DNA from: an uncultured Gammaproteobacteria bacterium
GTDB lineage: Bacteria; Patescibacteriota; Patescibacteriia; 2-12-FULL-60-25
DNA length: 64,000 bases
Assembly (NCBI GenBank): GCA_964604275.1
Contig: CAZRYH010000002.1
Location: forward strand, 2,413-66,412
Direction of reading: 5' to 3'
The notes beneath the pieces were generated by a model. It did no database searches. It saw only the letters and a list, made by a program, of their open reading frames with translations, and was not told the DNA's origin. Shown here piece by piece: positions 23,597 to 49,477 of this stretch. The translations under genes were made by a program, and so were the position numbers. The number at the start of each line of letters is the position of its first letter. The stretch's first letter is position 1.

Positions 23597-23705
23597 GCAG
23601 GCATTATATCACAAACGTGTTTGTGGGTGTGGCCACGATTGACAAAACCGAAAATGGATGATAACCAATTACCGCACCGTCACACCAAAAACGAAAGGAT
23701 ATCTG

Positions 23706-24395
23706 ATGAGTTTTTCCATGGAACAAGGCCATGAGGTCAGCCAGACCGTCACGCATAAAAAGACCATGAGTCAGAGGCAGGATGTGGCCATCCAACAGAC
23801 CATGCTGCAACGCCAACGCGAGTTGGTCGAGGCCGTATGCGGCATTCGGTACCAACCGCATGGCGATTGCGGCCAGTGCGGGCATCGTTTGACCGACCTC
23901 GAAATCCTCAAGGGCTTTCGTGACGATCCTAGGGATTACACCACGGAATGCCCCCTGTGCCACTGGCGTTTCGAGCCGCGGCTCCATGCCTCGACCCAGT
24001 TCACGAGTCTGCAAATCATGTACCTCTGTCCGACCCAGACGTTGGACAAGCTTGCATCCCTGCAGAATACGCCTTTGGATGAAATCAAGTCCCTGCACGC
24101 GACCGCATACCACTCGGCGCTCACGCACTTCGGTGGTCTGAAGCAGGCTTTCGCGCAACTGGGCATGGAATACGCCTTTGAGGCCGATCTGGACTGGCGC
24201 AAAAAAGTGGTTCCATTCCTGGGTAAGCTGCCGGACACGGTCATCGCCAAGTTACTTGGGGCTAGCGTGTGGCAGGTGAGGCGTTTGCGCGCCGCCAAGA
24301 GCATCGCGCCGTTCAGGGTTCGCGACTTGCCCGGCCAAGAGCCCGGCATTCTCGAACATCACGTTGACGAAGAGAGGAAGGGCGGCGAAGGCTGA
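23706..24395 (+). CDS. hypothetical Zn-ribbon protein with HTH-like tail, paralog 1
   Basis: ATG at 23706 after AAAGGA. Motifs QRELVEAVCG, CGQCGH..CPLCHW, HFGGLKQAFAQLG, LPDTVIAKLLG..RRLR. Confidence 0.55.
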   Translation: MSFSMEQGHEVSQTVTHKKTMSQRQDVAIQQTMLQRQRELVEAVCGIRYQPHGDCGQCGHRLTDLEILKGFRDDPRDYTTECPLCHWRFEPRLHASTQFTSLQIMYLCPTQTLDKLASLQNTPLDEIKSLHATAYHSALTHFGGLKQAFAQLGMEYAFEADLDWRKKVVPFLGKLPDTVIAKLLGASVWQVRRLRAAKSIAPFRVRDLPGQEPGILEHHVDEERKGGEG

Positions 24396-24423
24396 GCTCG
24401 GCCGACCGGAAAGGTGGTGCTCG

Positions 24424-25071
24424 ATGGTTTATCCGCGCGATCCGTTGAAGGGCGTGGGCATGGGCTGCTGCTCCAAACGAAATCCTGAATTCAAGAAAAT
24501 CGTTTGGCGTAGGCAGCGCGAGTTGGTGGAGGCTATCACTGGCAAGAAGTTCACGATTTCTTGCGTCTGCCGCAACACCACTTGCGCCCATAGTTACACG
24601 GAATGGGAAATCGTGAATTGGTTCGACGTGGACGGCTTCACGGTCGAATGTCCCAAGTGCGGTTGGCATTCCGAGCCGCGGCTGACAGTGGATTTCGGTG
24701 ACGGCGGCAACCGCAAGCGCATCGAGTGCCAGTTATACGGTCCTGGTTTGGTTCTGGAGCGCTTGCCGGTGGTGCTCAAATCGCCGCCTTGGGATTTCGC
24801 TGAATATTCGGCTATCTGCAACTCGGCGGTCGTACACTTCGGTGGCCTGAAGCAGGCCTGCGCGCAGTTGGGCATCGAACGTTCTTTCGGTCCGGGTCCT
24901 GACTGGCGCGATCGGATCGATCCGTTCCTGGGCAGACTGCCAGACACGGTCATGGCCCGGTTGCTCGACACTAGTCCACGGTTCATGAGACGGTGGCGCC
25001 GCAATCAGCGCATCGCGCCTTTCGATCCTGGTCGGGTTCTTTTGTCCGGAAAAGAGGTCCGGACAGTTTGA
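24424..25071 (+). CDS. hypothetical Zn-ribbon protein with HTH-like tail, paralog 2
   Basis: ATG at 24424 after GAAAGGTGG. Motifs QRELVEAITG, CPKCGW, HFGGLKQACAQLG, LPDTVMARLL. Confidence 0.55.
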   Translation: MVYPRDPLKGVGMGCCSKRNPEFKKIVWRRQRELVEAITGKKFTISCVCRNTTCAHSYTEWEIVNWFDVDGFTVECPKCGWHSEPRLTVDFGDGGNRKRIECQLYGPGLVLERLPVVLKSPPWDFAEYSAICNSAVVHFGGLKQACAQLGIERSFGPGPDWRDRIDPFLGRLPDTVMARLLDTSPRFMRRWRRNQRIAPFDPGRVLLSGKEVRTV

Positions 25072-25080
25072 CTCAACTTG

Positions 25081-25101
25081 AACGCCCAAGGGCGTTTTTT
25101 T
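25081..25101 (+). terminator. terminator after paralog 2
   Basis: AACGCCC-aa-GGGCGTT followed by T7. Confidence 0.65.
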
Positions 25102-25104
25102 CAT

Positions 25105-25128
25105 ACAAAAAATCCCTTTGCAGGGATT
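25105..25128 (-). terminator. terminator ending the minus-strand radical-SAM operon
   Basis: AATCCCT-gcaa-AGGGATT followed by T6, read on the minus strand. Confidence 0.6.
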
Positions 25129-25137
25129 GTTTTCGCA

Positions 25138-26115
25138 TCACATCAAATCCTTATAGCACATCGGATCCGCACCGGTCAGTTCTCCGGTCAGCCTGTACGC
25201 TCGGTTGCGGCAACCGCCGCAGTGGGCCAGGCGTTCGCAGTTGCGGCAGGGTTCGTCAAAGTCTTGCCGCTGTCTGATTTTATTGAACAGTTCGCTGTCT
25301 GACCAAATTTTTTCCAAAGGTGTTTCAAAAATATTGCCAGCGCTGACTCGGAAGAACGGACAGGGATAACATTCGCCAGATGGACCTATGACGCACGCGC
25401 CCACGCCAGCCGTGCAACCACCGTGGATGCCATCGAAGTCGCCTTTTTTGGATTCGTCCAACAAAGATACGAGCGGACTGGTGTAGCGGAGTATGTCGCC
25501 TTTCAGGAACAGCTCGTTGAGATGCTTTTCCGTGTCCATGAATTCCTCGCGCGTCATCAGGAAAGAAGGGTCGAGACGTTCGACCGGAATGCAGATGTTG
25601 AATCCGATCGGCACGTTGGCGCTTTTTGCGGCTTCAACCATCTGGTCGATCAAGTGACGGTTTTTGCGGTGGATAGTGGAAAAGACGTAGTTGTTGATGC
25701 CCGCGCGCCGCATGTCCTCCGCCAATTTGAGGTTGGCCGAACCGTGCAAACGCACGTCCTCGACCGGATCGAAACTCAGATGCACCAAATCGAAAATACG
25801 CAGTTTGTCCCACAGCCTCTCTTTGAGAAGCGTGCCGTTGCTCTGCAAAACCAGCCTGAATTTATGCGGCGTGTTGGTTATGAAATCGACCAATTTGTCG
25901 AATTCGCTGTGCAGGATGGCCTCGCCTCCTGAAATGGTGAATGTCCAAACGTCGTTGCGGTCCGCGAATCGATAAAGATCTTTAATTGTTTCGAGCGGCA
26001 AATCCACGGGTTTGAAATTCCGGTTGTAGCAATGTTTGCAGTTGAGATTGCATTTGGTGGTTATCTCAACTTCCAATATATGCATGCCCAAATTGGCATC
26101 TGATGTCTGGTCCAT
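25138..26115 (-). CDS. radical SAM/SPASM-domain protein (maturase 3 of the precursor operon)
   Basis: CNLNCKHC (CxxxCxxC) near the N-terminus. C-terminal Cys clusters GGCTAGVGAC..CYPC..CRNCERLAHCGGC. Confidence 0.8.
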   Translation of the reverse strand: MDQTSDANLGMHILEVEITTKCNLNCKHCYNRNFKPVDLPLETIKDLYRFADRNDVWTFTISGGEAILHSEFDKLVDFITNTPHKFRLVLQSNGTLLKERLWDKLRIFDLVHLSFDPVEDVRLHGSANLKLAEDMRRAGINNYVFSTIHRKNRHLIDQMVEAAKSANVPIGFNICIPVERLDPSFLMTREEFMDTEKHLNELFLKGDILRYTSPLVSLLDESKKGDFDGIHGGCTAGVGACVIGPSGECYPCPFFRVSAGNIFETPLEKIWSDSELFNKIRQRQDFDEPCRNCERLAHCGGCRNRAYRLTGELTGADPMCYKDLM

Positions 26116-27145
26116 AGTTGGTATTTGAATCCGTTAAACGCCACGCTAAGCAACCTCCGCGGCACTTGCCCCACTTCATGCAACCCGAACATGCTCCGGG
26201 CTTGGGCTTTTCCAGAATCTGCTTGCGGAAAAATTCGAAACCTTTGCCGTGGTTCCAAATTTCCGAGGGGTCTTCATCGAAGATATTGCCGCAAAGGTAT
26301 TCCTCGCTCTGGAAATAGCGGCAAGGGAACACGTCGCCTCGATAATCCACCACCAGCTTGTATTTTCCTCCGGCGCAATGGGGTAGGGGGACAGCGCTTT
26401 GGAAAACTTCGGGTTGATCGCAGAATACGTTCTGCATTCCGTGTCGCAATTTTCGTCGATTGTCCGGTATGGTCCGGAGGAATTCCAGATATTTGGGTAC
26501 TGCGGTTTCGTACATTGATTGCCTTTGAGTTAGGGTGCCGCGATCTATCGCCAAGTTGAAGGCGTGGTAGGCTAAATCCAAATTCGCGAACCGGGCATAA
26601 ATTGCTGGCATTTTCTCGATGCGATCCGCATCCACAACCGTGTTGATGGCCACATTCAAGCCGCGGTCCAGGGCCATGGCCAGAGACGCGGTGACGCGCG
26701 CGAACGAGCCTGGGACGCCGGTCAGGGCATCGTGGTCTTGGTCCAGAGCATGGATGGAAAACACTAACTCGTCGATATCTCCAAGTTCAAATTTGGACAA
26801 ATCCATGATGCCGTTGGTGTTGACCGTAATCCGCGTCATGCCGATTTTTTTCGCGAAAGAGAACAGGCGCGGGACGTCGCGATACATGAAGATTTCTCCG
26901 CCGCTGAAATTGAGCTGCCGCACACCGATGGCGTGGAGCTTGGTCAACGCGTTTTCCCAGTCGGCCAAGGGCTTGTCCTCAAAACGACGATCCGGCGCGC
27001 AGGCCCTAAAGCAAAACACGCACCGCTGGTTGCAGTTCCGCGTCACTTCAAGCTGGGCCATGGCCGGCTTTTGGATGGCCAGGCCGAACAGCTCGGGGTA
27101 TGAGAAACCGGCCAAATCAGCCGTTGATGAGGATGCGCCTGTCAT
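26066..27145 (-). CDS. radical SAM/SPASM-domain protein (maturase 2)
   Basis: CNQRCVFC cluster. C-terminal CAGGKYK..FPCRYF..CSGCMKWGKCRGGC. Overlaps the downstream gene by 50 nt. Confidence 0.8.
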   Translation of the reverse strand: MTGASSSTADLAGFSYPELFGLAIQKPAMAQLEVTRNCNQRCVFCFRACAPDRRFEDKPLADWENALTKLHAIGVRQLNFSGGEIFMYRDVPRLFSFAKKIGMTRITVNTNGIMDLSKFELGDIDELVFSIHALDQDHDALTGVPGSFARVTASLAMALDRGLNVAINTVVDADRIEKMPAIYARFANLDLAYHAFNLAIDRGTLTQRQSMYETAVPKYLEFLRTIPDNRRKLRHGMQNVFCDQPEVFQSAVPLPHCAGGKYKLVVDYRGDVFPCRYFQSEEYLCGNIFDEDPSEIWNHGKGFEFFRKQILEKPKPGACSGCMKWGKCRGGCLAWRLTDSNTNYGPDIRCQFGHAYIGS

Positions 27146-27362
27146 GTAGGTGTTCGATAAATGCGGCCGGGATGCGGCCGCATTGGTTGGTTGTACCGTT
27201 CTTCAAAATCACCGAAATCCATTCGGCGGTCTGGTCTTCGAAAAAATAAAAGTCAAAGTCCAGGCACACCGCCACGCGCCCCCCTTTTTCCATCCAAGCG
27301 ACCCGCGGATTGACGCGTTGGCCGTCTTGGATGGAATTCATGTCCGACGGGGGATTAGGCAT
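27117..27362 (-). CDS. PqqD-like peptide-binding (RRE) protein candidate
   Basis: 81 aa from ATG 27362 (track ORF starts at TTG 27386). Size and position between a small ORF and a rSAM gene fit. GGRVAVCLDFDFYFFEDQTAEWISVILKNG loosely resembles PqqD. Confidence 0.45.
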   Translation of the reverse strand: MPNPPSDMNSIQDGQRVNPRVAWMEKGGRVAVCLDFDFYFFEDQTAEWISVILKNGTTNQCGRIPAAFIEHLHDRRILING

Positions 27363-27364
27363 GG

Positions 27365-27505
27365 TTAGTCGCCGTTTATCAGACAACCGTTGTTCTTGAA
27401 ATCTTTGACGCTCATTTTCCAGGTCGTCGAGCTCTTGGGGGCTTGTACGGTCTTGGCCTTGTCAGCTGTTTTCTTAGCTTTCTTGGCTGGCGCGAGGTTC
27501 TTCAT
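27365..27505 (-). CDS. candidate RiPP precursor peptide (46 aa, below the ORF-track cutoff)
   Basis: Hand translation gives MKNLAPAKKAKKTADKAKTVQAPKSSTTWKMSVKDFKNNGCLINGD. The stop codon lies 2 nt before the PqqD-like ATG. Has its own promoter. No clear Shine-Dalgarno sequence. Confidence 0.45.
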   Translation of the reverse strand: MKNLAPAKKAKKTADKAKTVQAPKSSTTWKMSVKDFKNNGCLINGD

Positions 27506-27541
27506 AAAATGAAGATAGATTAATGAAAAATTGACGCCTCC

Positions 27542-27570
27542 AACATAGACCCGTGGGCTTGGGATGTCAA
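27542..27570 (-). promoter_or_regulatory. near-consensus sigma70 promoter (TTGACA-17-TATGTT) for the small ORF operon
   Basis: On the minus strand, TTGACA at 27570..27565, 17-nt spacer, TATGTT at 27547..27542. Confidence 0.5.
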
Positions 27571-27579
27571 TTCCCTGGG

Positions 27580-27608
27580 AAAAATAAAAAACCCGACTTG
27601 TCGCCGGG
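27580..27608 (-). terminator. rho-independent terminator after the methyltransferase gene
   Basis: Minus strand reads CCCGGC-gacaa-GTCGGG, then TTTTTTATTTT. Confidence 0.6.
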
Positions 27609-27622
27609 TTGGGTTTGAGGGA

Positions 27623-28375
27623 TTAGGCAGCTCGGGCCGTGAAATAGAGACGACTCGGATGCTCGAGACCGTCTTCATAGACCTTGGTCTCAAGCTTTGT
27701 CTCCAAATTCATGAAGCCCGCCGTTTCCAACATCGGAAGGATGTCGGTTTCGTCGTAGCCGCGCTCGGTGTGGAGCTCGTGGTCGTGGGCGAAGGCGCCA
27801 TCCGGACGCCGCAGAAACATGTCCACGTCCATGGTCCAGACGCGATCCTGCCCTCCAAAGCGGAACGTCACGAAGGAAGCTTCATCCTCGAAAATCCTGG
27901 GCTTGTTCTTCTGCGAAGCCGCGATGTGGTCGCGGGTATTCATGTCGAAGAGGAAGATGCCACCCGGCTTCATGTTCCGCCTCACGCTCCTGAACGCGGA
28001 CAGCATGTCCTCATCGGTCAGGAGATAGTTGAGTGAATCGTAGAAGCAGACGGCCAAATCCACGGCGCCGTATTCCGAGAGGTCAAAGTCGCGCATGTCG
28101 GCCAAGACGTAGACTCCAGAAGGTGATTTGCCTCGCGCCTTCTCGAGCATTGGCCCTGAGAGGTCGATGCCCAAGGGCGAAAAACCCATGCCCTCAAGCA
28201 TGCGCGAGATGGTCCCGGTGCCGCAGGCCACATCTAGAGCGCGACCGCGGGGTACGGCGTAGCGCTCAACGGTTTCCGCGATCAGGGATTCCCAGGCCGC
28301 GTATTTTTTGCCGCTCATGAGGCGGTCGTATTGGGCGGCGAAATTGTCGCCGTATTGCGTTTGATCGTGGTTCAT
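27623..28375 (-). CDS. class I SAM-dependent methyltransferase
   Basis: Motif I ALDVACGTGTISRML. ATG at 28375 overlaps the upstream TGA (ATGA). Confidence 0.8.
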   Translation of the reverse strand: MNHDQTQYGDNFAAQYDRLMSGKKYAAWESLIAETVERYAVPRGRALDVACGTGTISRMLEGMGFSPLGIDLSGPMLEKARGKSPSGVYVLADMRDFDLSEYGAVDLAVCFYDSLNYLLTDEDMLSAFRSVRRNMKPGGIFLFDMNTRDHIAASQKNKPRIFEDEASFVTFRFGGQDRVWTMDVDMFLRRPDGAFAHDHELHTERGYDETDILPMLETAGFMNLETKLETKVYEDGLEHPSRLYFTARAA

Positions 28376-29628
28376 AGCCTTATTCCTTGTTCGTAAGCGC
28401 ATGAGAAGCGGCAGAAACCGCCACAAGCCGCGCATGATTCCGTGGAATTGTGCGTGCAAGTCGCGCAGGTCTTGTGCCGCGAGAGGAAGCGTTTGGTTTC
28501 TGCTTCAAGCGCCGCGACCAAGCCCGGCCCGTCATACGTCTCGATGTCATCCAGGGCGCGCGTGCGGTCCATGACGCATGGATAGAGCTTGCCGATGGCG
28601 CTCACGGAGATGCGCTTTCTGATGCCGCATCCGTAGTACGCGGCCTTGGGTATGGATTTCTTGCTCGCCAACATACCGTTACGCACGTTACCGTTGCCCA
28701 AATGTGTGGCTATGGCCGACAGTTCGGCTTTGGCCAAGGCGTTGTGAACCGCATTGCCGGTCCGTATCGCTGGACGCAGGTGCACAGTTGTCTGATGGTC
28801 GTGCGCCACTCGGATGAGCCCGTCGATTTGATCCAGATTGTTGGCGTGGATCGTGGCGATGAAGTAGGGCTTGATGCCCACCTCGTGTATCCGTTTCAAT
28901 CCGGTCATCAGATTATCATACAGCCCGGAAAGCCGTCGAATGCTGTCATGGACCGGACCCACGCCATCCAAGCTGATGGCTACGCCCAATCCGCGGCCGA
29001 GAGACTCCAGCAGTGCGCTTGATGCGCCCGCCAGTCCGCCACCGTTGGTCACCACGTAGTAATGCCTTCCCAAGCCGTGGATGTGGTCCAGGATGAGCGG
29101 CAGGTCTTGGCGTAAGGTCGGTTCTCCGCCCGTGACCTCAAACAGGCACGTACCCAGATGCGCCAACCAATCGATGCGGCGCAAGACGTCATGGAGCGTG
29201 GGCTGAGGGCCATGCAAATCGTCGATGTGATAACACGCCTCGCAGGCGCAATCACACGCGCTCGTCACGTCCAACAGAGTTTGGGGCGGCAATCCGACGC
29301 AGTCCACCTTGCAATCCAAGCGTTGGGATGAGGTGGAGCGCGATTCCAGCAGGACCGCGTTCTCCGTCAGCAGGGCGACCGTATCGCGGTCCAGTTGCGA
29401 TTCACGGATTGGTTCTTGACCTTGCAACGCATCGGCCAAGTCTTGATCCGCGTGGATGAATGCGGCGTAGAGGTGGGGCGGGGTGATGACCGCGCCACCG
29501 GGTTCGCGGCGGATGATGGCTAGGGGATTGCGATGCAGAATGCGCGAGCCTGTCGCGGGCGTCCTGTCGGTTTCGCGGATTTTGACCACGCAAGGCGCCC
29601 CCAGATGGTGCAGCGATGTAGCGAACAT
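28372..29628 (-). CDS. radical SAM/SPASM-domain protein with an N-terminal extension of about 110 aa (maturase 1)
   Basis: CDCACEAC cluster at about residue 125. C-terminal YYGCG..YPCVMD..CATC..CAACGGFC. AAGGAG precedes the ATG at 29628. Confidence 0.8.
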   Translation of the reverse strand: MFATSLHHLGAPCVVKIRETDRTPATGSRILHRNPLAIIRREPGGAVITPPHLYAAFIHADQDLADALQGQEPIRESQLDRDTVALLTENAVLLESRSTSSQRLDCKVDCVGLPPQTLLDVTSACDCACEACYHIDDLHGPQPTLHDVLRRIDWLAHLGTCLFEVTGGEPTLRQDLPLILDHIHGLGRHYYVVTNGGGLAGASSALLESLGRGLGVAISLDGVGPVHDSIRRLSGLYDNLMTGLKRIHEVGIKPYFIATIHANNLDQIDGLIRVAHDHQTTVHLRPAIRTGNAVHNALAKAELSAIATHLGNGNVRNGMLASKKSIPKAAYYGCGIRKRISVSAIGKLYPCVMDRTRALDDIETYDGPGLVAALEAETKRFLSRHKTCATCTHNSTESCAACGGFCRFSCAYEQGIRL

Positions 29629-29637
29629 GTCGGCTCC

Positions 29638-30648
29638 TTATTTCGTGGTTTCAGTGAATAGTCGTCCGTATTCCAGCAGCGCGTCCTCGGCAGGCACATC
29701 CAGACGCGTCAGGGCATCCAAGCCGGCCGTGCGATCGATGATTCCGAACCGAACACGTTCGGCTAAGTACTCGAGGACCACCGGACATTTTTCGATCACT
29801 TCTTCCAATGGCAGGCGTTTGCGACCTTGCGTCAGGTCCGCGAAATATGCGCCCGGCATCAGGCAGTCCGTGTCGTAGCCACCACACAACGGATCGGCCC
29901 ACGGGAGGTTGAGCTCCGAGACCAGATTGCGGTTACGCGTTTTGCTCAGCCCGAAGGCGAAGCCGCCGCGTACGATGGTGATACCCGACGGTTTTTTCCA
30001 ATGGATGGAAAAGTTGCCGTCCTGTTTCTGTTTGGGCGTGTCGCCCCCTGTCATGAGCGTTTCGTATCCCGTCGCCCGCATGGTCTCCAAATATGCACGG
30101 TCGATCATGCGATTGCAGAGCTTGCCGCAGGGCAGGGTCCGCGTCGCGTGGCAATGGCGATACACGTCGAACGTGTCCAAGGTCTTTCCCGTGATGGCGA
30201 TGACCGCGGGGTCGTCTTGTATGGCGTGGGTGATGTCCACGGTGAGATGGGCTTCCCCCAGCCCGAGGTTACTGATGACGTCGCGCACGTTCTTGTCCGC
30301 AACGTTGCCTTTGACTCCCGTGGCCACCGTAAAAACGTCGAGCTTTATTCCGCGCTTGCGGCATTCGTCGCGCATGAGCGCGAGCACGATGGTGCTGTCC
30401 AATCCGCCCGAATAGGCGAAGAGCACGCTGCGAGTCGAACCAAGGAACTCCTGGAATTCGCGGTCGCAGGTTTCTCGGATGTTGGCCAAACCCAGGTCGT
30501 GGACCGCGGCGCAGCATTCGCATAGCGGTTGACCAGCGCGCATTTCGAAGTCGAGGGGTTTCCCCGTGGCCGGATTGTTCACCCGCAGACCCATGGGAAA
30601 TACGCACGAGGAACAGAAAACGAAATCCTGATCTTTTGAATCGCACAT
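29638..30648 (-). CDS. PP-loop ATP pyrophosphatase with N-terminal 4-Cys ribbon (amidotransferase-like)
   Basis: CSSC..CECC ribbon followed by AYSGGLDST (SGGxDS PP-loop). This order recalls WbpG/PseA-type N-acetyl-sugar amidotransferases. Confidence 0.65.
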   Translation of the reverse strand: MCDSKDQDFVFCSSCVFPMGLRVNNPATGKPLDFEMRAGQPLCECCAAVHDLGLANIRETCDREFQEFLGSTRSVLFAYSGGLDSTIVLALMRDECRKRGIKLDVFTVATGVKGNVADKNVRDVISNLGLGEAHLTVDITHAIQDDPAVIAITGKTLDTFDVYRHCHATRTLPCGKLCNRMIDRAYLETMRATGYETLMTGGDTPKQKQDGNFSIHWKKPSGITIVRGGFAFGLSKTRNRNLVSELNLPWADPLCGGYDTDCLMPGAYFADLTQGRKRLPLEEVIEKCPVVLEYLAERVRFGIIDRTAGLDALTRLDVPAEDALLEYGRLFTETTK

Positions 30649-30765
30649 GTTTGGCCTCTGCTGCCTATGGGTTGTCCAAGGGGCGAACGCGTTTCGCGTT
30701 GCGGTTAGTTAAGCCGTATAAATAGACAAAAGTCAAGCCCTCAAGAATCAAAAAAAAAGCCCCGG

Positions 30766-31632
30766 TCATTTGAACGGGACCTCAGGAAGAGAATCCAACA
30801 ATCTCTGCAGGGTGACGAGCGCCTCCACGTGCTGGAAATTTTCATTCAGGTTGCGTTTGAGGTCACGGATGAGGCCTTCGTCGCCGGCCGCGACATGGAT
30901 CGCATCGTGCCAAGCGCTGACCTTGCCGTACACCATCAAACACCTGTCCCTGAATTCTACTGATGGTTCGTTGGTGGGGGCATTCTCCGTGGCCGCAGAC
31001 ATCTCGAGCATAACTGCGCACTCCAAGGCCGCTTCCATGAAAACCGATCCGTCGCGTTTGTACGCTTCGAATTTCGCGTTCAGCTCGCGGCAGTGCATGA
31101 TGGCCGAAAGCATTTCCGACCGAGCCTCCGTGTCACCGCTTTCTCCCAACTGCATCTGCTTGTTGGAGGCCGACTGCTGGAATGAATCGAAGGGCTTGCC
31201 CAGAATGTTGGGACCCAAGACGCCTTGGTCGCTGAGCAGGCAGTCCTGTGCCATCTCCAAATACGTCAGCAACGCGGAAGCCATGCGCATGGCTTGGCTT
31301 TTGCGGCGGTTGAGTTCCGCATGGGCGTGGATCCTGGCTCTGGTCTCCACTTTTTGCCAGGCCAACAAGGCGGTGATGGACATGAAAATCAGAGTGGAGA
31401 GGGAGGCTTTGACCGCGGATTCGGAATTGTCAGCCATAAGTACGAACCCGGATCCGAACGCCGCCCCACCTAACGCGAACATGCTTACGAGCCAGAATGT
31501 CGCCTTCCTTGAAAGGTGAGATCCGCAGGTGTTGCAGACCACGCAGTCCGTCCTCTTGAGCTCCAGGGCTTTGGCTGAGTCGGCGAACGAGAGCAGTTCA
31601 TGCAAACTGGGTTGGGCATCGGATTTTTGCAT
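30766..31632 (-). CDS. hypothetical membrane protein with N-terminal CxxC..C motif
   Basis: CVVCNTCGSHL, two TM helices, helical C-terminal domain. No family recognised. Confidence 0.45.
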   Translation of the reverse strand: MQKSDAQPSLHELLSFADSAKALELKRTDCVVCNTCGSHLSRKATFWLVSMFALGGAAFGSGFVLMADNSESAVKASLSTLIFMSITALLAWQKVETRARIHAHAELNRRKSQAMRMASALLTYLEMAQDCLLSDQGVLGPNILGKPFDSFQQSASNKQMQLGESGDTEARSEMLSAIMHCRELNAKFEAYKRDGSVFMEAALECAVMLEMSAATENAPTNEPSVEFRDRCLMVYGKVSAWHDAIHVAAGDEGLIRDLKRNLNENFQHVEALVTLQRLLDSLPEVPFK

Positions 31633-40846: not shown

Positions 40847-43477
40847 CTACTGCCTGATTTTATCGTTCGTCAGTGTAGCCATGGGCATTTGATTAGTCCT
40901 CCGTCGCATTCGTACCTGCTGAACCCACTTTTCAAGTTTTTCAATATCGTTTTTCACCTCACTTGGAATAGGAAAAGGTTCATACGCTGCAAGAGGCTGA
41001 TCATGACCGCCCTCCCATTTTGAAGATTTACGTATACCTTCACGAATAGTTGAGATGTCTGCTTCAGTTATATCATGAAGGTTCTTCATGAGCTTCGTGT
41101 CGACATTACGCCTGTAGCGCACTACTGCATTTTCAAAAAGAACTTCTTCCACGGCTCTTTCCCATGTTTGACGAAGGCGCGCATAGATACGAGTTACCAT
41201 TGGTTCGTATTCATTTTCTCCGCGCTCTTTATATATACGTTCGGCGCGGCTAAGTTCCTGTTGGAGAATATCAATCCTCTCCTTTGTGCCCTTCCCCTCC
41301 CAAGGGAGTCCTGCGTTGATATGACCAGCCAAAGAATCTCCACCTCGACTGATTGTCTGGGTGTCGCATAATACATCCAAAGTTTTCGCCTCCTCAATGA
41401 GAGCAGCAACAAAAACTATTTCATGTGTAAAAACTATCACCTGACGCTTTTTTGCCTCTTCGACTAATCTTTTTGCCACGTTGGTACGCCAGCGATGGTC
41501 TAAGGACGATACGGGGTCATCGAAGATGATTGCCGACGCATGAGTAGCGCCACGAACCTCTGCTAAAAATGCAGCCAAAGCGATACACCTGCTCTCGCCC
41601 TCACTGACAACCTTACCCAGTTCTGCCTTTGTTGCGTGCTTCAAAAACACCTGGTGATAAAGAACGCCTTTCTGACCTCCTGCAGGTCTTAGCTCTAGTT
41701 CCGGTGCGTTGAATCCCAACAGTCGCAATTCATCATCGAAGGCTACTGTTAGAGTGTCTGTCACGTATTTTTTGGTTAAGTTGGTACTAAAAGTTGTCAG
41801 TGCTCGAGTATTTGTAGATTTCAAACATTGTTCGTACGCATTCATACGACCCTTGCGATCAATTTCTGCGTTTATCTGTGGAAGGACCGCCTCGAGCATG
41901 GAGCGTGACTTCAATTCCAACAGCCGCTCTTCCGATCGTTTTCGCTCAACTGGATTTGATGCCTTTAATATTTCGGTTGCCCGCTCTTCAATGCTTGTCG
42001 CTAAATTTTCCAAAATTGTTGTTGGTGGTGCCAGAGAAATTGAAGTTGGGACAAGACTATCTCCGAATAGACTAGTGCGCGCTGATTCTGCAGCCTCTAA
42101 GAACCGCTTTGTGGCTTCGTAGCCGTCGGGATCAAGTACAGCTAAGTCATCGAGTGCATCTTTCACATTCCCCGGAACAAAAGCACGGCATTTCAAAGAG
42201 AATTCTTCAAAAATCTTCTGCTTTGCCACAGCATCTGCCTGAGCGGTGCCCTGCACAAACTCTTCGAGCTTCGTCAAACGCTCCTTCGTAGACGATTCCA
42301 TCTCTTGTTGACATAAAACGCATTTAGCGCCTTCTTCAATGTGCGGGAAGGCAAGACTAGGATAAGCGTTTTCTTTCGAATATACACGTGCAGACTCCCA
42401 CAATCCTCGCCATGCAGACGATTCAAGACCGGCGAGTGTGACCTGTCCACTAAATTTCTCGGCAGCGTTACGAGCGACCCTAGCTGCATTGGATGCCTCA
42501 TCGCGGAGTCTGACGAACTGCGCAACCGACGCATCTCCTAACGATACGCTTTGCTTTTTAAGTTCTTCCGTCAGGCGACGTAATCGCGACCCCTTAATTC
42601 TGTGGTCTGCTGCCTTTTTTTCCGGATTCTCCGATTTTGCAGTAGCAATCACTTCCGTCAATTTCTCAAGCTCAAGTTGTTCATCATGAGTCAACCTAGC
42701 TACGAGATCGACGTCTTCACGCTTTGTCAAAGCTGTCAGGTTGTTCAGAAATTGGCTTGCCTGAGTATTCTGAGGGATTGCTGGCCAAGTTACGACCTGA
42801 GTTTGGAGTAAATGGAGCTCATTGTTAAGACGCGACTCTATACGCGCACAGACCCCAGCGAGTCTGTCCATCACATCGAGGCCAAAAGGTCTGAAACGCA
42901 CTTCGGTTTTATCAGATACGTACACCTGCGCAGCAGATGAGTCGAACACGCTTACTGCTCCGAGATTAGCGGGTCCAGCTATACCATCCTTCCAGATATA
43001 TTCATCTTCGTCCCCAGCGACATCAACTATGAACTTAGCGGTTGGCGGTCCGGCAGGTTTCTCAGAGAGTGCGTTTGCGAGGATAGCGTCGTTGCTTCCG
43101 CGAGCTCTACAGGCTCTCTTTAGTATCCTTCCGTAACCCGACTTACCAGCACCATTATCTCCATAGACAATGGTGAGACCTGTTTTTCCAAACTTAATCG
43201 ACTCATTTGGTGCAAGCGCATTGACGTCAGAGACATGTGTGAGGGCAACAAGATTAACAGATCCTTTTTCTTGACCGGTTGGTAGATGGTCAATGATCAA
43301 CGGTGAAATCTCGATTGTAGTCGCGCTAAGACCTTGTGGTTTCTTGCAAAGTTCCGTCAACTCCTCGATATCAGTTTCTGTAATGTCAGTTTGGACAATA
43401 ATTCGTCGCAACGCATCGCGTATCCAATGATTCTCGAGAGAATTTGACCAGGCGAGTATTTCTTCTAGGACAGACAT
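40847..43477 (-). CDS. ABC/SMC-type AAA ATPase, PrrC/RloC-like (AAA_13-like) with coiled-coil insert
   Basis: Walker A GDNGAGKSG. Long helical insert carrying CVLC. Signature SEGESRC, Walker B IIFDDPVSSLD, H-loop VFTHE. About 190-aa C-terminal domain with RLRQTWERAVEE..GGHD. Confidence 0.65.
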   Translation of the reverse strand: MSVLEEILAWSNSLENHWIRDALRRIIVQTDITETDIEELTELCKKPQGLSATTIEISPLIIDHLPTGQEKGSVNLVALTHVSDVNALAPNESIKFGKTGLTIVYGDNGAGKSGYGRILKRACRARGSNDAILANALSEKPAGPPTAKFIVDVAGDEDEYIWKDGIAGPANLGAVSVFDSSAAQVYVSDKTEVRFRPFGLDVMDRLAGVCARIESRLNNELHLLQTQVVTWPAIPQNTQASQFLNNLTALTKREDVDLVARLTHDEQLELEKLTEVIATAKSENPEKKAADHRIKGSRLRRLTEELKKQSVSLGDASVAQFVRLRDEASNAARVARNAAEKFSGQVTLAGLESSAWRGLWESARVYSKENAYPSLAFPHIEEGAKCVLCQQEMESSTKERLTKLEEFVQGTAQADAVAKQKIFEEFSLKCRAFVPGNVKDALDDLAVLDPDGYEATKRFLEAAESARTSLFGDSLVPTSISLAPPTTILENLATSIEERATEILKASNPVERKRSEERLLELKSRSMLEAVLPQINAEIDRKGRMNAYEQCLKSTNTRALTTFSTNLTKKYVTDTLTVAFDDELRLLGFNAPELELRPAGGQKGVLYHQVFLKHATKAELGKVVSEGESRCIALAAFLAEVRGATHASAIIFDDPVSSLDHRWRTNVAKRLVEEAKKRQVIVFTHEIVFVAALIEEAKTLDVLCDTQTISRGGDSLAGHINAGLPWEGKGTKERIDILQQELSRAERIYKERGENEYEPMVTRIYARLRQTWERAVEEVLFENAVVRYRRNVDTKLMKNLHDITEADISTIREGIRKSSKWEGGHDQPLAAYEPFPIPSEVKNDIEKLEKWVQQVRMRRRTNQMPMATLTNDKIRQ

Positions 43478-43639
43478 AGTGACGAAAAATATTCAAAAGC
43501 AGCTCTTTATCCAAGCCATTCTGCCGCCTAGCTCCCCACTTGGCAAGTGTAGACAAAAACTGCATAAAATGGCACTATTAAGGCCATAAAGTTCGGCAAA
43601 ACGGTCGGCAACATCCGACGTTGATACGAAAACTAATGT

Positions 43640-46600
43640 ATGGAAAAAATCTTGGATAACAAAAAGGCAAAAGTAGTCGATGTGCTGCAAGATAGGATAC
43701 AGGCAGGTTCTAAGTTATCTGTCATTTCGGCGTATTTCACTATCTACGCGTTCGACAAGTTGCGGGAACAGCTTGAGCGCGTTGATAGCCTACGCTTCCT
43801 TTTTGTAGAGCCGACCTTCACTAAACAAAAAGAAGAGAAGCGTGAGTTCGTGATCAATCGCAACGAGCGTGAACGGTTCCTGTCAGGCACGGAGTTTGAA
43901 ATAAAACTAAGAAACGAATTAACCCAATCAAAGATCGCGAAGGAATGTGCGGAATGGATTCGTAACAAAGTTGAGTTTCGTTCGATGATGAAATCCGACG
44001 CTTCACAGACGCGCGCTATACATGTCAGTAATCCAAAAGAAGAATTTGTAGTTCAAGGGTCTATTGATTTCACAGCGACAGGTATCGGCGCGGTTCCGTC
44101 GCGGAAGCTCGATCTCAACATGTTCTCCAATGATCCGCAGGCGACAAGAGAGGTCCTGACTTGGTTTGATGAGATTTGGGACAACCCTGCTCTTGCAGAA
44201 GACGTAAAGGATCAGGTTCTCCAAAATATCCAGAACATCTACAAAGAAAACAGTCCGGAGTTCTTGTATTTTGTTACGCTATACAACGTCTTCCGGGAAT
44301 ATCTCGAAGAACTGACAGAGGAAAACATCCTTAAACCACGAACAGGCATCAAGGACACTACTGTATGGAACAAGCTCTACAAGTTTCAAAAAGACGGTGT
44401 CATGGGAGCGATTGCTAAACTGGAGAAGCACAACGGCTGCATCATCGCTGATAGTGTCGGGTTGGGGAAGACATTCGAAGGACTCGCTATCATAAAATAC
44501 TACGAGCTACGCAACTGCCGTGTGCTTGTTCTTGCCCCAAAAAAACTTCGTGATAACTGGACGCTCTATCGAGTGAACGACAGCAGGAACATCTTGGCGC
44601 AGGATCGTTTTGGCTATGATGTTTTGAACCATACCGATCTCAGCCGAACGAGTGGCACATCGGGCGACATCAATCTAGAGACGGTCAATTGGGGAAACTA
44701 CGACCTTGTCGTCATCGACGAATCTCATAACTTTCGTAATAACGATCCACGCAAAGACCGCAAAACACGCTATCGGAAGCTCATGGAGGATATCATTCGC
44801 AGCGGCGTGAAGACAAAAGTCTTGATGTTGTCTGCGACACCCGTAAACAATCGTTTGAATGACCTTAAAAACCAGATTGCCTTTATTACAGAAGGCGACG
44901 ACAACGCACTCAAAGAAGATGGTATACGTAGCATCAGCGATACGCTTCGTTCCGCGCAGCTCGCGTTCAACACGTGGCTCAAGCTCCCAACAGAAGGAAG
45001 AAAGATGGGCAACCTATTGTCGTCTTTGAACATCGACTATTTTAAGCTTTTGGACGCATTAACAATCGCACGTTCGCGAAAGCACATAGAGAAGTACTAC
45101 GATTTGACGGATGTCGGCAAGTTTCCTGTTAGGCGTAAGCCGATAAACCAAAAAACAGATATTGACACAGAGGGTAATTTTCCGACGTTTGACGACATCA
45201 ACGATTCGATAAGGCGTCTGAAGCTCGCTCTCTATTCTCCCTTTACATACGTGCGGCCAGACAGAATCGCCTACTATGAGAAAAAATATGATATTCAAGT
45301 ACAGGGCGGACGCTCTGTCTTTCGTCAGGAGGATCGCGAGCGCAACCTTGTGAACCTGATGCGCGTGAATATCTTGAAGCGTCTTGAAAGTTCCGTCTAT
45401 TCCTATGACTTGACCCTACAACGCATCCACGGACGTATTGTAGGAGTTCTCAAGCAAATTGATGATATCGAGCGTACCGGTGAAGACGAAGAACAATTCA
45501 ATCTCGATAATGTAACGCAAGAAGAGGCTGTAGACGACGAAAACCTAGAGCCAGAAGATTTGATGATCGGCACGACCGTGAAAGTTGCCTTCAAAGACCT
45601 GGATCTCGTTCGTTGGCGACAGGATCTCGTTGACGATGAAAAACGTCTGTCAGGTTTGATTACTGACTCCAAACAGGTTAAACCCAAACGCGACGCCAAG
45701 CTAGAAAGACTGAAGCAAGTCATTCAAGAGAAAATGGTGCATCCGATCAACCCAGGCAATCGAAAGGTCGTTATTTTTAGTGCGTTCGCAGATACAACAA
45801 ATTACCTGTACGAGCACATAGCCAAGTGGGCAAAGAATGAGTTTGGTGTTGAAAGCGCCCTGGTTACCGGTAGTGGACCGAACTTAAGCACGGCAAGTGA
45901 CATTCCTCACCAGTTCGGAGCCATTTTGACCAACTTCTCACCATTGTCAAAAGAACGAGACAAAGTCTACCCGAACATAAAAACGAATATCGACATACTG
46001 ATCGCAACCGATTGCGTATCTGAGGGCCAAAACCTTCAGGACTGTGATTGTTTGGTGAATTATGACATCCACTGGAACCCAGTGCGAATCATCCAACGAT
46101 TTGGTCGTATTGACCGTATCGGGTCAAAAAATGACAGTATCCAATTGATAAACTTTTGGCCAAACTTAGAGCTTGATGCGTACATCCGTCTGGAATCGCG
46201 CGTACGTGGCCGTATGATGCTCTTAAACTCATCCGCGACTGGTGAAGACGACATCATCAATGAAACGGAGACGGACATAATGAACGATATTGAATATCGA
46301 AAAAACCAGCTCATGAAACTTCAAGAAGAGGTGGTGGATCTGGAGGATATCTCCGGCAATCTGTCTATCACGGACCTGACCATGAACGATTTCAAAATGG
46401 ACTTGATGGAGTACATGAAAGACCACAAACAAGAGTTGGAAAACGCCCCCCTTGGTATGTACGCCGTTGCCGATCGCACGCGCATGACAGATAGCGAGCT
46501 TAAGCCCGGCGCGATTTTCGTGCTGAAGCAGGCAGCGTTCTCGGGGTTAGAGAGTAAGGAAGTTAACGCTCTCCACCCCTACTACCTCATCTGCATCGAA

Positions 46601-46909
46601 GAAGGCGGCATTATCCGGCATGGATACACGCAGGCAAAGTACATTCTGGATATGTACAAGAAGCTTTGCCGTGGCGTGGAAGGCGTAAATGCGGATTTGG
46701 TCGCTGCGTTTGATCGCACGACAAATGAAGCCAGTGATATGCGCCTCTACTCCTCCCTGCTCGAGACGGCCATCGCGAATATCATCGGTAAAAAACAAGA
46801 AAATGTTCTTACGTCGTTATTTTCCCTAGGTAGATCACTCATTGCGGAACAAGGCCGTTTATCTGGACTGGATGATTTTGAGCTCGTTTCCTTTCTCGTG
46901 ATTAAATGA
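43640..46909 (+). CDS. SNF2-family helicase with N-terminal PLD-like domain
   Basis: ADSVGLGKTFEG, VVIDESHNFRN, ATDCVSEGQNLQD, HWNPVRIIQRFGRIDRIGS. N-terminal SVISAYFTIYAF..LRFLF segment. Confidence 0.85.
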   Translation: MEKILDNKKAKVVDVLQDRIQAGSKLSVISAYFTIYAFDKLREQLERVDSLRFLFVEPTFTKQKEEKREFVINRNERERFLSGTEFEIKLRNELTQSKIAKECAEWIRNKVEFRSMMKSDASQTRAIHVSNPKEEFVVQGSIDFTATGIGAVPSRKLDLNMFSNDPQATREVLTWFDEIWDNPALAEDVKDQVLQNIQNIYKENSPEFLYFVTLYNVFREYLEELTEENILKPRTGIKDTTVWNKLYKFQKDGVMGAIAKLEKHNGCIIADSVGLGKTFEGLAIIKYYELRNCRVLVLAPKKLRDNWTLYRVNDSRNILAQDRFGYDVLNHTDLSRTSGTSGDINLETVNWGNYDLVVIDESHNFRNNDPRKDRKTRYRKLMEDIIRSGVKTKVLMLSATPVNNRLNDLKNQIAFITEGDDNALKEDGIRSISDTLRSAQLAFNTWLKLPTEGRKMGNLLSSLNIDYFKLLDALTIARSRKHIEKYYDLTDVGKFPVRRKPINQKTDIDTEGNFPTFDDINDSIRRLKLALYSPFTYVRPDRIAYYEKKYDIQVQGGRSVFRQEDRERNLVNLMRVNILKRLESSVYSYDLTLQRIHGRIVGVLKQIDDIERTGEDEEQFNLDNVTQEEAVDDENLEPEDLMIGTTVKVAFKDLDLVRWRQDLVDDEKRLSGLITDSKQVKPKRDAKLERLKQVIQEKMVHPINPGNRKVVIFSAFADTTNYLYEHIAKWAKNEFGVESALVTGSGPNLSTASDIPHQFGAILTNFSPLSKERDKVYPNIKTNIDILIATDCVSEGQNLQDCDCLVNYDIHWNPVRIIQRFGRIDRIGSKNDSIQLINFWPNLELDAYIRLESRVRGRMMLLNSSATGEDDIINETETDIMNDIEYRKNQLMKLQEEVVDLEDISGNLSITDLTMNDFKMDLMEYMKDHKQELENAPLGMYAVADRTRMTDSELKPGAIFVLKQAAFSGLESKEVNALHPYYLICIEEGGIIRHGYTQAKYILDMYKKLCRGVEGVNADLVAAFDRTTNEASDMRLYSSLLETAIANIIGKKQENVLTSLFSLGRSLIAEQGRLSGLDDFELVSFLVIK

Positions 46910-46910
46910 T

Positions 46911-47690
46911 ATGCGCAATCTTGTCATTGAAGCCCTTGGTCTCACGAAACATCCTGCTCTTCAAAATAGTCGTGTTCCAAAAGCAGCTTTTTTTGAGCAG
47001 GAAAGCTGTGACGCACAAGATCGAAGACTTCTGACGGCTGAGGTTGATGGTTTAACTTTACTTGCAGTCTTCAATGCTACAACGACCAACCTCGCCTCCT
47101 ACCAAGATGAAGATCACAATTACGAGGAGTTGTATCTGTTCTACGTTGAACTTCGGAGCGATACGCACGTACATCATATCGCCGAGTTGCTTCATGCGAT
47201 CATCCCCAATCCTTTACTGGTCGTGTTTGCTTATGAGGGGAAAATAGCCTTGTCTGCAGCCGAGAAACGACTGAACAAAAATGAACATGGCAAGACAATC
47301 GTCGAGGGTGTTATGACGAGCCCTTGGACGTCCTTAAAGCCAACCAATGACCAAGAACGTGCATTCCTCACTTCGATAGCCATAACAAACTGGTCTCACC
47401 ACGACATACTTTCATTTCTGCGTGATGCAGAACGCCTGATCTTAGCCTCCAATCTTGCGCTGATTGCCGGGCAGTTCACCTCTAGCCGCAAGTTGGATGT
47501 AATGGACGCAACCAGACTATTGCAAGAGCATGCTATGTGCACAGAAAGGATTAACGCTTTGGAAAGAGAAGAAAAAAACACCTCCCATTTTGGGGAACGA
47601 ATGCAAATCCACCTCACCGCGAATAACGAGCGTAAAAAACTAGAGTCGTGCAGACAAACCATTAAAACCCTCGTCCAATCCCTTACTTAA
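46911..47690 (+). CDS. DUF4391-like protein
   Basis: 259 aa, sits between a helicase and a methylase. IPNPLLVVFAYEGKIALSAAEKRLNK resembles the DUF4391 core. Called from memory, not from a search. Confidence 0.55.
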   Translation: MRNLVIEALGLTKHPALQNSRVPKAAFFEQESCDAQDRRLLTAEVDGLTLLAVFNATTTNLASYQDEDHNYEELYLFYVELRSDTHVHHIAELLHAIIPNPLLVVFAYEGKIALSAAEKRLNKNEHGKTIVEGVMTSPWTSLKPTNDQERAFLTSIAITNWSHHDILSFLRDAERLILASNLALIAGQFTSSRKLDVMDATRLLQEHAMCTERINALEREEKNTSHFGERMQIHLTANNERKKLESCRQTIKTLVQSLT

Positions 47691-47695
47691 AAACT

Positions 47696-49474: not shown

Positions 49475-49477
49475 CGT

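Follow-up and report, generated by a model that had tools for sequence, protein, structure and literature searches.

We analysed a 64,000-nucleotide stretch of DNA (the window) from an uncultured bacterium that was deposited as a gammaproteobacterium and that GTDB places in the Patescibacteriota (assembly GCA_964604275.1, contig CAZRYH010000002.1, positions 2,413 to 66,412). Seven open reading frames (ORFs) lie head to tail between positions 25138 and 30648 of this window, all on the minus strand (Table 1). Three of them encode radical S-adenosylmethionine (SAM) enzymes, here called rSAM-A, rSAM-B and rSAM-C; the others encode a PP-loop protein, a class I SAM-dependent methyltransferase and two small proteins of 46 and 81 amino acids (aa). 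An earlier note, made from the letters alone, had taken these genes for a cluster producing a ribosomally synthesized and post-translationally modified peptide (RiPP) of an undescribed class. Its inventory of genes proved right. The Radical_SAM model (PF04055) scored above cut-off for all three ORFs with a CxxxCxxC motif, the methyltransferase was recognized by Methyltransf_25 above cut-off, and the PP-loop protein was confirmed by its SGGLDS motif, the Pfam matches themselves staying below cut-off. The 46-codon ORF does contain exactly one Cys. The close packing of the genes, as the note had described it, was likewise confirmed by the coordinates: the ATG of the methyltransferase overlaps the rSAM-A stop as ATGA (28372-28375), the 81-aa ORF shares 29 nt with rSAM-B (27117-27145), and rSAM-B shares 50 nt with rSAM-C (26066-26115). 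The 81-aa ORF starts 2 bases past the stop of the 46-aa ORF. Judging from its sequence pattern, the hairpin that follows rSAM-C is probably the end of the operon.

Table 1. Genes and candidate signals of the cassette, in the order in which they are read on the minus strand (window coordinates).
Feature	Position	Strand	Basis
PP-loop protein, 336 aa	29638-30648	-	SGGLDS motif
rSAM-A, 418 aa	28372-29628	-	CDCACEAC; Pfam Radical_SAM above cut-off
Class I SAM-dependent methyltransferase, 250 aa	27623-28375	-	Methyltransf_25 E = 2e-15
Terminator-like hairpin and T-run just after the methyltransferase stop	27590-27610	-	Consensus scan and sequence; pattern match
Sigma-70-like promoter TTGACA-17-TATGTT, 10/12 matches, 5' of the 46-aa ORF	27542-27570	-	Pattern match
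46-aa ORF, putative precursor peptide MKNLAPAKKAKKTADKAKTVQAPKSSTTWKMSVKDFKNNGCLINGD	27365-27505	-	Positional and sequence conservation
81-aa ORF (89 aa from upstream TTG)	27117-27362	-	Conserved small protein
rSAM-B, 359 aa	26066-27145	-	CNQRCVFC; Pfam Radical_SAM and SPASM above cut-off
rSAM-C, 325 aa	25138-26115	-	CNLNCKHC; Pfam Radical_SAM and SPASM above cut-off
Terminator-like hairpin and T-run past the rSAM-C stop	25111-25128	-	Consensus scan; pattern match

The same seven genes were found in the same order (PP-loop, rSAM-A, methyltransferase, small ORF, 63-81-aa ORF, rSAM-B, rSAM-C) in about 30 independent loci, including 14 GTDB species and 17 metagenome contigs (L007, L009, L011-L025 and L033-L049). 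These loci came from the contigs of distant rSAM-A members (36-50% identity), from a scan of GTDB species representatives and from a motif scan of metagenomes. Their flanks are unrelated to one another. Because the order recurs in about 30 independent loci, the arrangement is not due to chance. The GTDB scan recovered a true locus in 14 of 185,579 species representatives (L012-L025), and the cassette has so far been seen only in Patescibacteria, also known as the candidate phyla radiation (CPR). Five of these 14 metagenome-assembled genomes carry Gammaproteobacteria or Woesearchaeota labels, which are unverified and stem from automated third-party submissions.

Conservation was particularly informative for the 46-aa ORF, for which gene calls exist on six Logan contigs. 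The earlier note held that loss of the small ORF from homologous loci would speak against a peptide substrate; wherever a locus extended far enough, the ORF was there, in an unchanged position. The N-terminal part of the peptide is charged and varies in length and charge between loci, and its C-terminus is nearly invariant (...W-x-M-x-V-x-x-F-x-x-NGCLINGD). The last 18 residues are fixed in register, as W-x-[MLI]-x-[VIAT]-x-x-[FVLI]-x-x-x-[GV]-C-x-[LIV]-N-x-[DN] followed by the stop; in the window this 18-mer reads WKMSVKDFKNNGCLINGD. W29, C41 and N44 are invariant in the peptide alignment, the C-terminal residue is D or N with the stop directly after it, and a single Cys is present in 24/24 versions of the peptide. 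Comparison of the 24 distinct DNA versions of these 18 codons gave mean pairwise differences of 0.32, 0.18 and 0.55 at the three codon positions, a pattern indicating that the translated sequence is under purifying selection. The possibility of a spurious small ORF was rejected, since both the conservation and the codon-position pattern show that it is coding. We conclude that the 46-aa ORF is a genuine gene that has been conserved.

The peptide motif also proved specific to the cassette. A motif was built from an alignment of 8 closer peptide sequences, and 241 million metagenome records were scanned for NGCLIN[GAS]D alone. This yielded 17 confirmed loci, all beside cassette genes: wherever the contig reached, the methyltransferase lay upstream, and the 81-aa gene and rSAM-B lay downstream. 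No occurrence of the motif without the adjoining cassette was found among these 17 loci. A phmmer search of the peptide against 1.84 billion representatives returned one match only (E = 5e-4), a 46-aa query being short on statistical power. No Pfam or NCBIfam model recognizes the peptide, and neither GCLINGD nor NGCLINGD was found as a string in the literature library searched.

Some cassettes carry natural variants of the peptide gene. Two tandem precursor genes are present in L024 (1699-1881 and 2112-2291), as well as in L039 and L040; they differ in their leaders and slightly in their cores (...WQMDVEEFEKNGCLINSD and ...WQIEVKEFEENGCLVNVD). We also considered whether the choice between D and N at the C-terminus was tied to the presence of the PP-loop gene. 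This was rejected, as the peptides of L022 and L025 end in N and yet these loci keep the gene.

The rSAM-A family comprises 61 clusters at E = 1e-76 or better, with the next match at 1e-12, and all named members are Patescibacteria (Parcubacteria, Falkowbacteria, Paceibacterota and Moraniibacteriota). SkfB, SuiB and CteB are RiPP maturases composed of an N-terminal RiPP recognition element (RRE), a radical-SAM core and an auxiliary-cluster domain. rSAM-A displays the same three parts: an RRE-like N-terminal domain (about residues 30-100), a radical-SAM core and a Cys-rich C-terminal auxiliary-cluster domain. Compared with sequences of the PDB, the rSAM-A profile was closest to SkfB (6efn, E = 1.6e-21). 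The AlphaFold2 (AF2) model (mean predicted local distance difference test score, pLDDT, 93) shows strands followed by two helices in the N-terminal ~100 residues. A Foldseek search with this model returned SkfB as best match (E = 4e-16, template modelling (TM) score 0.63/0.68, 410 columns of 418 aa), then SuiB and CteB. Its predicted fold thus gives rSAM-A the architecture of RRE-fused peptide maturases. Invariant in 32 orthologues are C125, C129 and C132 of the SAM triad, the C-terminal C334, C351, C388, C391, C402 and C406, and C13. The last belongs to an invariant Pro-Cys (P12-C13) at the extreme N-terminus, outside both the SAM motif and the C-terminal Cys cluster; C13 might be an additional cluster ligand.

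rSAM-B and rSAM-C scored above the SPASM cut-offs of both Pfam (PF13186) and NCBIfam (TIGR04085). Across orthologues, each retains its SAM triad (C38/C42/C45 in rSAM-B, C22/C26/C29 in rSAM-C) together with eight invariant C-terminal Cys. The claim that all three enzymes bear SPASM-type C-terminal cysteines therefore held by hidden Markov model (HMM) for rSAM-B and rSAM-C; for rSAM-A, six invariant Cys stood in its favour but no HMM match did. All three keep the cysteines of the SAM cluster and of the auxiliary clusters intact. The closest PDB sequence to rSAM-B was PqqE (6c8v, E = 2e-13), followed by SuiB and SkfB, and the PDB matches of rSAM-C were PqqE, SuiB and anSME, mostly over the SPASM part.

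The 81-aa protein is kept between the peptide gene and rSAM-B in at least 13 loci, with a family consensus of LNPxV...VVYxDFNYxFF...PxDFIxYL...II. It had been described as PqqD-sized; the size stands, but no HMM supports identity with PqqD. A word-indexed homologue search with the protein found only itself, neither Pfam nor NCBIfam gave a match, and an hhalign comparison with the N-terminus of one PqqD-containing radical-SAM protein (P0062) was uninformative. Alignment by hhalign with residues 30-97 of rSAM-A gave a probability of 64% (E = 6.5e-5). On account of this match to the N-terminal domain of rSAM-A, we regard the 81-aa protein as a putative RRE-like protein that, standing alone, would bind the peptide for rSAM-B and rSAM-C.

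For the methyltransferase, Methyltransf_25, _11, _12, _23 and _31 all scored above the Pfam cut-off. Its closest solved relatives, after two uncharacterised proteins, are the amine N,N-dimethyltransferases DesVI, TylM1 and CalS10. Its best NCBIfam match was the daptide methyltransferase NF041820, at 55.6 bits against a cut-off of 175. Besides this match and the amine N,N-dimethyltransferase relatives, the cassette resembles daptide clusters in that the conserved part of the peptide is its extreme C-terminus; it differs in lacking a daptide oxidoreductase or aminotransferase and in a precursor that ends in D/N, not T. In at least three Patescibacteria genomes (P0004, P0006, P0035), the methyltransferase is joined to the C-terminus of rSAM-A in a single protein of ~670 aa, which argues for joint action of the two. 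A fused gene lies at 8001-10001 in L011/L012.

The PP-loop protein could be placed in no existing family. PP-loop (PF01171), Asn_synthase and QueC all scored below cut-off in Pfam and NCBIfam scans, and covered the SGGLDS region only. It is a PP-loop ATPase of the AANH superfamily. Its relatives form 89 clusters with E-values of 1e-44 or lower; the named ones are all Patescibacteria/CPR, one of them from Absconditabacterales, and by sequence the protein is a new family of its own. Motifs that are invariant or conserved in ≥90% of 47 sequences are an N-terminal Zn ribbon of four Cys (C12/C15/C43/C46), the invariant SGGLDS (S80-S85), PCGKxCN, GGDTP and GGYDTDC. Three invariant cysteines lie outside the ribbon: C174 and C178 in PCGKxCN, and C262 in GGYDTDC. 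Public gene calls give the protein a length of either 318 or 336 aa; we prefer the 336-aa start because the shorter version deletes the invariant C12/C15 pair.

Structural comparison of the PP-loop enzyme (AF2 model, pLDDT 95) pointed in two directions. The best TM scores (0.50-0.53) were to the Legionella N-acetyl sugar amidotransferase (NASAT) LpNASAT (8WEX), and the best E-value (2e-6) was to TtuA (5b4f), but with a TM score of 0.38. Further neighbours were NcsA, [4Fe-4S]-LarE, GMP synthetase and NAD synthetase. With the [4Fe-4S]-dependent sulfurtransferases TtuA, TtcA and Ncs6 (tRNA thiolases) and CtaC (the thioamide synthetase of closthioamide) the cassette enzyme has in common a PP-loop of the SGGxDS type, N-terminal Cys pairs of zinc-finger type and three further conserved cysteines. 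The spacing of C174/C178/C262 after the PP-loop is presumably roughly that of TtuA/TtcA. The sequence similarity to TtuA-type enzymes is, however, confined to the PP-loop region; the motif is C-x3-C rather than C-x2-C, and there is no C-terminal zinc finger. We know of no precedent for a TtuA-type enzyme acting on a ribosomal peptide. In enzymes of the TtuA/TtcA type, three conserved cysteines hold a [4Fe-4S] cluster that delivers sulfide. CtaC, which belongs to this type, introduces thioamides into the backbone of a peptide (PMC6772006). NASATs are defined by a Zn-binding tetracysteine motif, CXXC-Xn-[GN]XCXXC, and a PP-loop (PMC10607449). Like WbuX, PseA and LpNASAT, the cassette enzyme has an N-terminal tetracysteine ribbon followed by a PP-loop Rossmann domain. 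In contrast to them it has no sugar-biosynthesis context, and its C174, C178 and C262 do not figure in the defining features of NASATs that were consulted (PMC10607449). The NASAT equivalog TIGR03573 scored 18 bits on the PP-loop enzyme against a cut-off of 203.

In order to place the radical-SAM enzymes, family membership was judged by the equivalog cut-offs of NCBIfam (release 20), together with Pfam. No cut-off was approached. Scores were 75.8 and 82.8 for PqqE (TIGR02109, cut-off 381) and 74.9 and 84.3 for MftC (TIGR03962, cut-off 265), rSAM-B and rSAM-C scoring similarly on these two models; 59 for anSME (TIGR03942, cut-off 349); 46-59 for AlbA (cut-off 850) and 50-69 for StsB (cut-off 625) among the sactipeptide maturases; 42.7 for the SkfB equivalog on rSAM-A (cut-off 300); and 40-46 for the streptide KxxxW maturases StrB/SuiB (TIGR04080, cut-off 500). 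The best NCBIfam matches of rSAM-C, AhbD (121) and NirJ2 (107), were also far below their cut-offs of 500. The three enzymes thus lie outside the sulfatase-maturase and cofactor families, as the earlier note required for a peptide pathway, with SkfB, SuiB and CteB nearest to rSAM-A. Since none reached any equivalog cut-off, they appear peptide-maturase-like but members of no described family. Of the generic features of radical-SAM/SPASM peptide maturase systems, the SAM motif, a SPASM or auxiliary-cluster domain and an adjacent, co-conserved short precursor are present; the candidates for an RRE are the N-terminal domain of rSAM-A and, despite its lack of a PF05402 match, the 81-aa protein. 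Within NCBIfam, Pfam and the literature library searched, no description of the peptide or of the system was found, and the system can be called undescribed to that extent.

Each known system resembles the cassette in part. The likeness to SkfB, CteB and SuiB lies in the three-part architecture of rSAM-A and in a short substrate peptide encoded beside the enzyme. The Skf system, however, has an unrelated precursor; that of the cassette contains one Cys, and the cassette adds two more SPASM enzymes together with a PP-loop ATPase and a methyltransferase, and lacks a protease or ABC exporter of SkfC/E/F type. Ranthipeptides (SCIFF) have a Cys-rich core, with ~6 Cys in ~45 residues, against one in the cassette peptide. 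The K-x3-W motif of streptide finds no counterpart, as the peptide alignment contains no conserved Lys at a fixed distance from the invariant Trp. With the pathways of pyrroloquinoline quinone (PQQ; PqqA/D/E) and mycofactocin (MftA/B/C) the cassette shares a short precursor whose C-terminal core is invariant, a small separate protein beside SPASM enzymes (here a putative peptide chaperone), and the lack of an exporter. It differs from both in having three radical-SAM enzymes rather than one, from the former in a peptide without the E-x3-Y of PqqA, an 81-aa protein without PF05402 and the absence of PqqB/C/F, and from the latter in a peptide that ends in LIN-x-[DN] instead of the GVY of MftA and in the absence of MftD/E/F. 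The combination of radical-SAM/SPASM enzymes, RRE and precursor peptide is known in kind. What is new is the motif of the precursor, the trio of radical-SAM enzymes, the presence of a new-family PP-loop enzyme in a RiPP-type cluster and the restriction to Patescibacteria.

The divergence of the genes suggested a further level of organisation. Pairwise divergences across 12 complete loci (the window and 11 others) correlated at Spearman 0.78-0.93 among PP-loop, rSAM-A and methyltransferase, at 0.57-0.67 among the 81-aa protein, rSAM-B and rSAM-C, and at 0.23-0.44 between the two groups; pairwise correlations among 12 loci are non-independent observations, which detracts from their weight as support for a modular pathway. 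Read at the sequence level, the cassette consists of two co-evolving modules, one formed by the PP-loop enzyme, rSAM-A and the methyltransferase, the other by the 81-aa protein, rSAM-B and rSAM-C. Their separation suggests past recombination at or near the peptide gene. The split coincides with the hairpin (27610-27590) and the sigma-70-like site (27570-27542) that precede the peptide gene. This site is the best promoter-like match in 24900-31000, the total of such sites there not exceeding shuffled expectation.

No conserved genes were found to accompany the cassette. In the flanks of 17 loci, no gene family occurred in more than 4, and no conserved protease, transporter or exporter, immunity protein, or oxidoreductase/dehydrogenase was detected. 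In L009 the neighbours are housekeeping genes, for example those for ribosomal proteins and EF-G. This absence of protease, exporter and immunity genes, the near-invariant core and the housekeeping neighbourhoods together make a molecule of conserved function, cofactor-like or a signal, likelier than a hypervariable antibiotic or a classical bacteriocin.

Taken together, these results lead us to read the cassette as a self-contained, Patescibacteria-restricted peptide-modification pathway of RiPP type, arranged as two modules around its precursor gene and possibly yielding a cofactor-like product. We put the probability of this reading at about 0.72. The RiPP-type interpretation of the earlier note is supported in silico by the conserved small ORF and by the maturase fold of rSAM-A. 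In such a pathway, the alternating hydrophobic W-x-M-x-V-x-x-F segment would serve as a recognition strand for the RRE-like domain of rSAM-A and for the 81-aa protein, and the eight C-terminal residues NGCLINGD would be the core. The PP-loop enzyme, rSAM-A and the methyltransferase of the upstream module would act on the same peptide region. rSAM-A, being SkfB-like, would most likely join the sulfur of the only Cys to a carbon close by as a thioether; the best candidate for the acceptor is the invariant Asn three residues further on. The PP-loop enzyme could adenylate a carbonyl or carboxylate of the core and then exchange O either for S, in the manner of TtuA/CtaC with a [4Fe-4S] cluster on C174/C178/C262, or for N, in the manner of an amidotransferase. 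The three extra invariant cysteines tilt this choice towards sulfur. The methyltransferase, as a relative of amine N-methyltransferases, would cap a heteroatom. In the downstream module, the 81-aa protein would present the peptide to rSAM-B and rSAM-C, a role proposed for it because neither enzyme has an RRE-like domain of its own. These enzymes might carry out two more C-H functionalisations, for instance a cross-link, an epimerisation or an oxidative decarboxylation, and a housekeeping protease would release the product.

Several observations weigh against this reading or parts of it. The reaction of each enzyme is assigned by analogy throughout, and the TM score of the match to TtuA is low. 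rSAM-A found no match to a SPASM HMM in Pfam, and its SPASM-type assignment rests on its conserved cysteines and predicted fold. In the Pfam scan, PF05402 (PqqD) matched none of the 13 orthologues of the 81-aa protein, and a profile of this family retrieved nothing meaningful from the PDB sequences. The promoter and the terminators are pattern matches only. Loci with incomplete gene sets are also at odds with a strict seven-gene pathway. In L007 (GCA_900089805.1), the PP-loop gene is absent upstream of rSAM-A and a protein kinase gene takes its place, and L020 (CAYWEY010000003.1) has no 81-aa gene between peptide and rSAM-B and encodes the most divergent peptide, WKLSVEEVLSSVCELNGD; neither gene can therefore be strictly essential. 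Finally, the rarity of the cassette among GTDB species argues against an essential cofactor, and the NCBIfam models on which rSAM-C scored best, if far below cut-off, are those of tetrapyrrole enzymes.

This last point bears on the view that the radical-SAM proteins are cofactor or tetrapyrrole enzymes of AhbD/NirJ type, or sulfatase maturases, beside small ORFs without function. In its favour stands the rank of AhbD and NirJ2 among the rSAM-C matches, but the conservation of the small ORF contradicts it, and we consider it very improbable. No heme, d1, tetrapyrrole or sulfatase genes lie nearby, either among the window neighbours or in the flanks of 17 loci; about 30 loci keep the small ORF at the same place, in the same frame and with a conserved sequence, its substitutions being of coding type; and rSAM-A has an RRE-maturase fold. 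With scores so far below cut-off and the wrong gene context, a function in heme/d1 synthesis or sulfatase maturation was rejected. A classical secreted bacteriocin of sactipeptide or ranthipeptide type is a more serious contender. Such a peptide would carry one thioether on its single Cys, be decorated by the other enzymes, be exported and cleaved by unlinked generic systems, and kill competitors. The nearest relatives of rSAM-A, SkfB and CteB, are indeed thioether-forming, and radical-SAM/SPASM enzymes with an RRE-like protein and a short peptide are the layout of such clusters. Sactipeptides and SCIFF/ranthipeptides, however, carry several Cys where this peptide has one, the AlbA, SkfB and StsB cut-offs were widely missed, and the 17 loci share no conserved gene for export, leader cleavage or immunity. 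Moreover, the core stays nearly invariant even though the enzymes are only 36-50% identical, unlike typical antimicrobial cores. On balance, a bacteriocin seems unlikely.

Somewhat less likely still, in our estimate, is a sacrificial scaffold, from which a C-terminal small molecule or redox cofactor would be cleaved off as in PQQ, mycofactocin and pearlins, to act as a true cofactor for other enzymes. This view overlaps with the preferred one, except that the peptide would be purely sacrificial. The invariant C-terminal core with its stop right after D/N is what such a scaffold would look like, rSAM-B and rSAM-C score comparably on the PqqE and MftC models with PqqE as the closest PDB sequence, and a cassette that has neither export nor immunity genes and, in L009, sits beside housekeeping genes (ribosomal proteins, EF-G) is consistent with it. 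Yet the scores remained short of the PqqE and MftC cut-offs, neither an E-x3-Y nor a GVY motif is present, and there are no counterparts of PqqB/C or MftD/E. No client dehydrogenase or dedicated peptidase is co-conserved, and the distribution of the cassette is sporadic.

Within the preferred reading of a dedicated peptide-modification pathway, we tentatively raise a more specific and doubtful possibility: that the product represents a new class of peptide-derived molecule in Patescibacteria, built on the NGCLINGD core by three radical-SAM enzymes, bearing a thioamide, thiocarboxylate or amidine installed by the PP-loop enzyme, and serving as a conserved cofactor or a host-interaction signal. 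To our knowledge, such chemistry has so far come only from YcaO/TfuA enzymes in RiPPs. PP-loop-dependent insertion of S or N into a ribosomal peptide is the possibility of greatest interest here. The cassette has a fair chance of new chemistry. The precursor motif, the PP-loop family and the three radical-SAM subfamilies, all without a curated model, are each candidates for new enzymology. Patescibacteria are episymbiotic and have tiny genomes of ~1 Mb, with very little biosynthetic capacity. That such small genomes conserve an investment of seven genes in one peptide points to an important, undescribed function, and the product could open a way into the physiology of CPR bacteria or their interaction with hosts. 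Owing to the invariant core, one synthetic gene set and one peptide would stand for the whole family.

In one lineage, an additional pair of rSAM-C-like genes was observed ~1.5 kb upstream of the cassette (L016, 2120-4480; L044, 2-1357). This pair may be a second, unrelated radical-SAM system.

The neighbours of the cassette in the window include TrmD, a histidine phosphatase, MFS-like half-proteins, a MYG1-family protein and a PIF1 helicase. Scans of the window for tRNAs and Rfam families gave no matches. Just past the end of the cassette lie two adjacent paralogous ORFs on the plus strand, at 23658-24395 (245 aa) and 24364-25071 (235 aa). They have their C-terminal half in common (...HFGGLKQA-AQLG-E...DWR...PFLG-LPDTV-A-LL...), and Pfam gave a weak HTH_17 match only. 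Further along the window, a segment at 40847-52471 stands out by its lower G+C content (0.41-0.47, against 0.52-0.60 elsewhere) and has the gene content of a defence-type island: an AAA_21/AAA_13/SMC_N ATPase (876 aa), an SNF2/Helicase_C protein (1089 aa), a DUF4391 protein, an N6_N4 DNA methylase and a ResIII and RE_endonuc protein (997 aa). The island probably represents a restriction-modification-like system gained by horizontal transfer.

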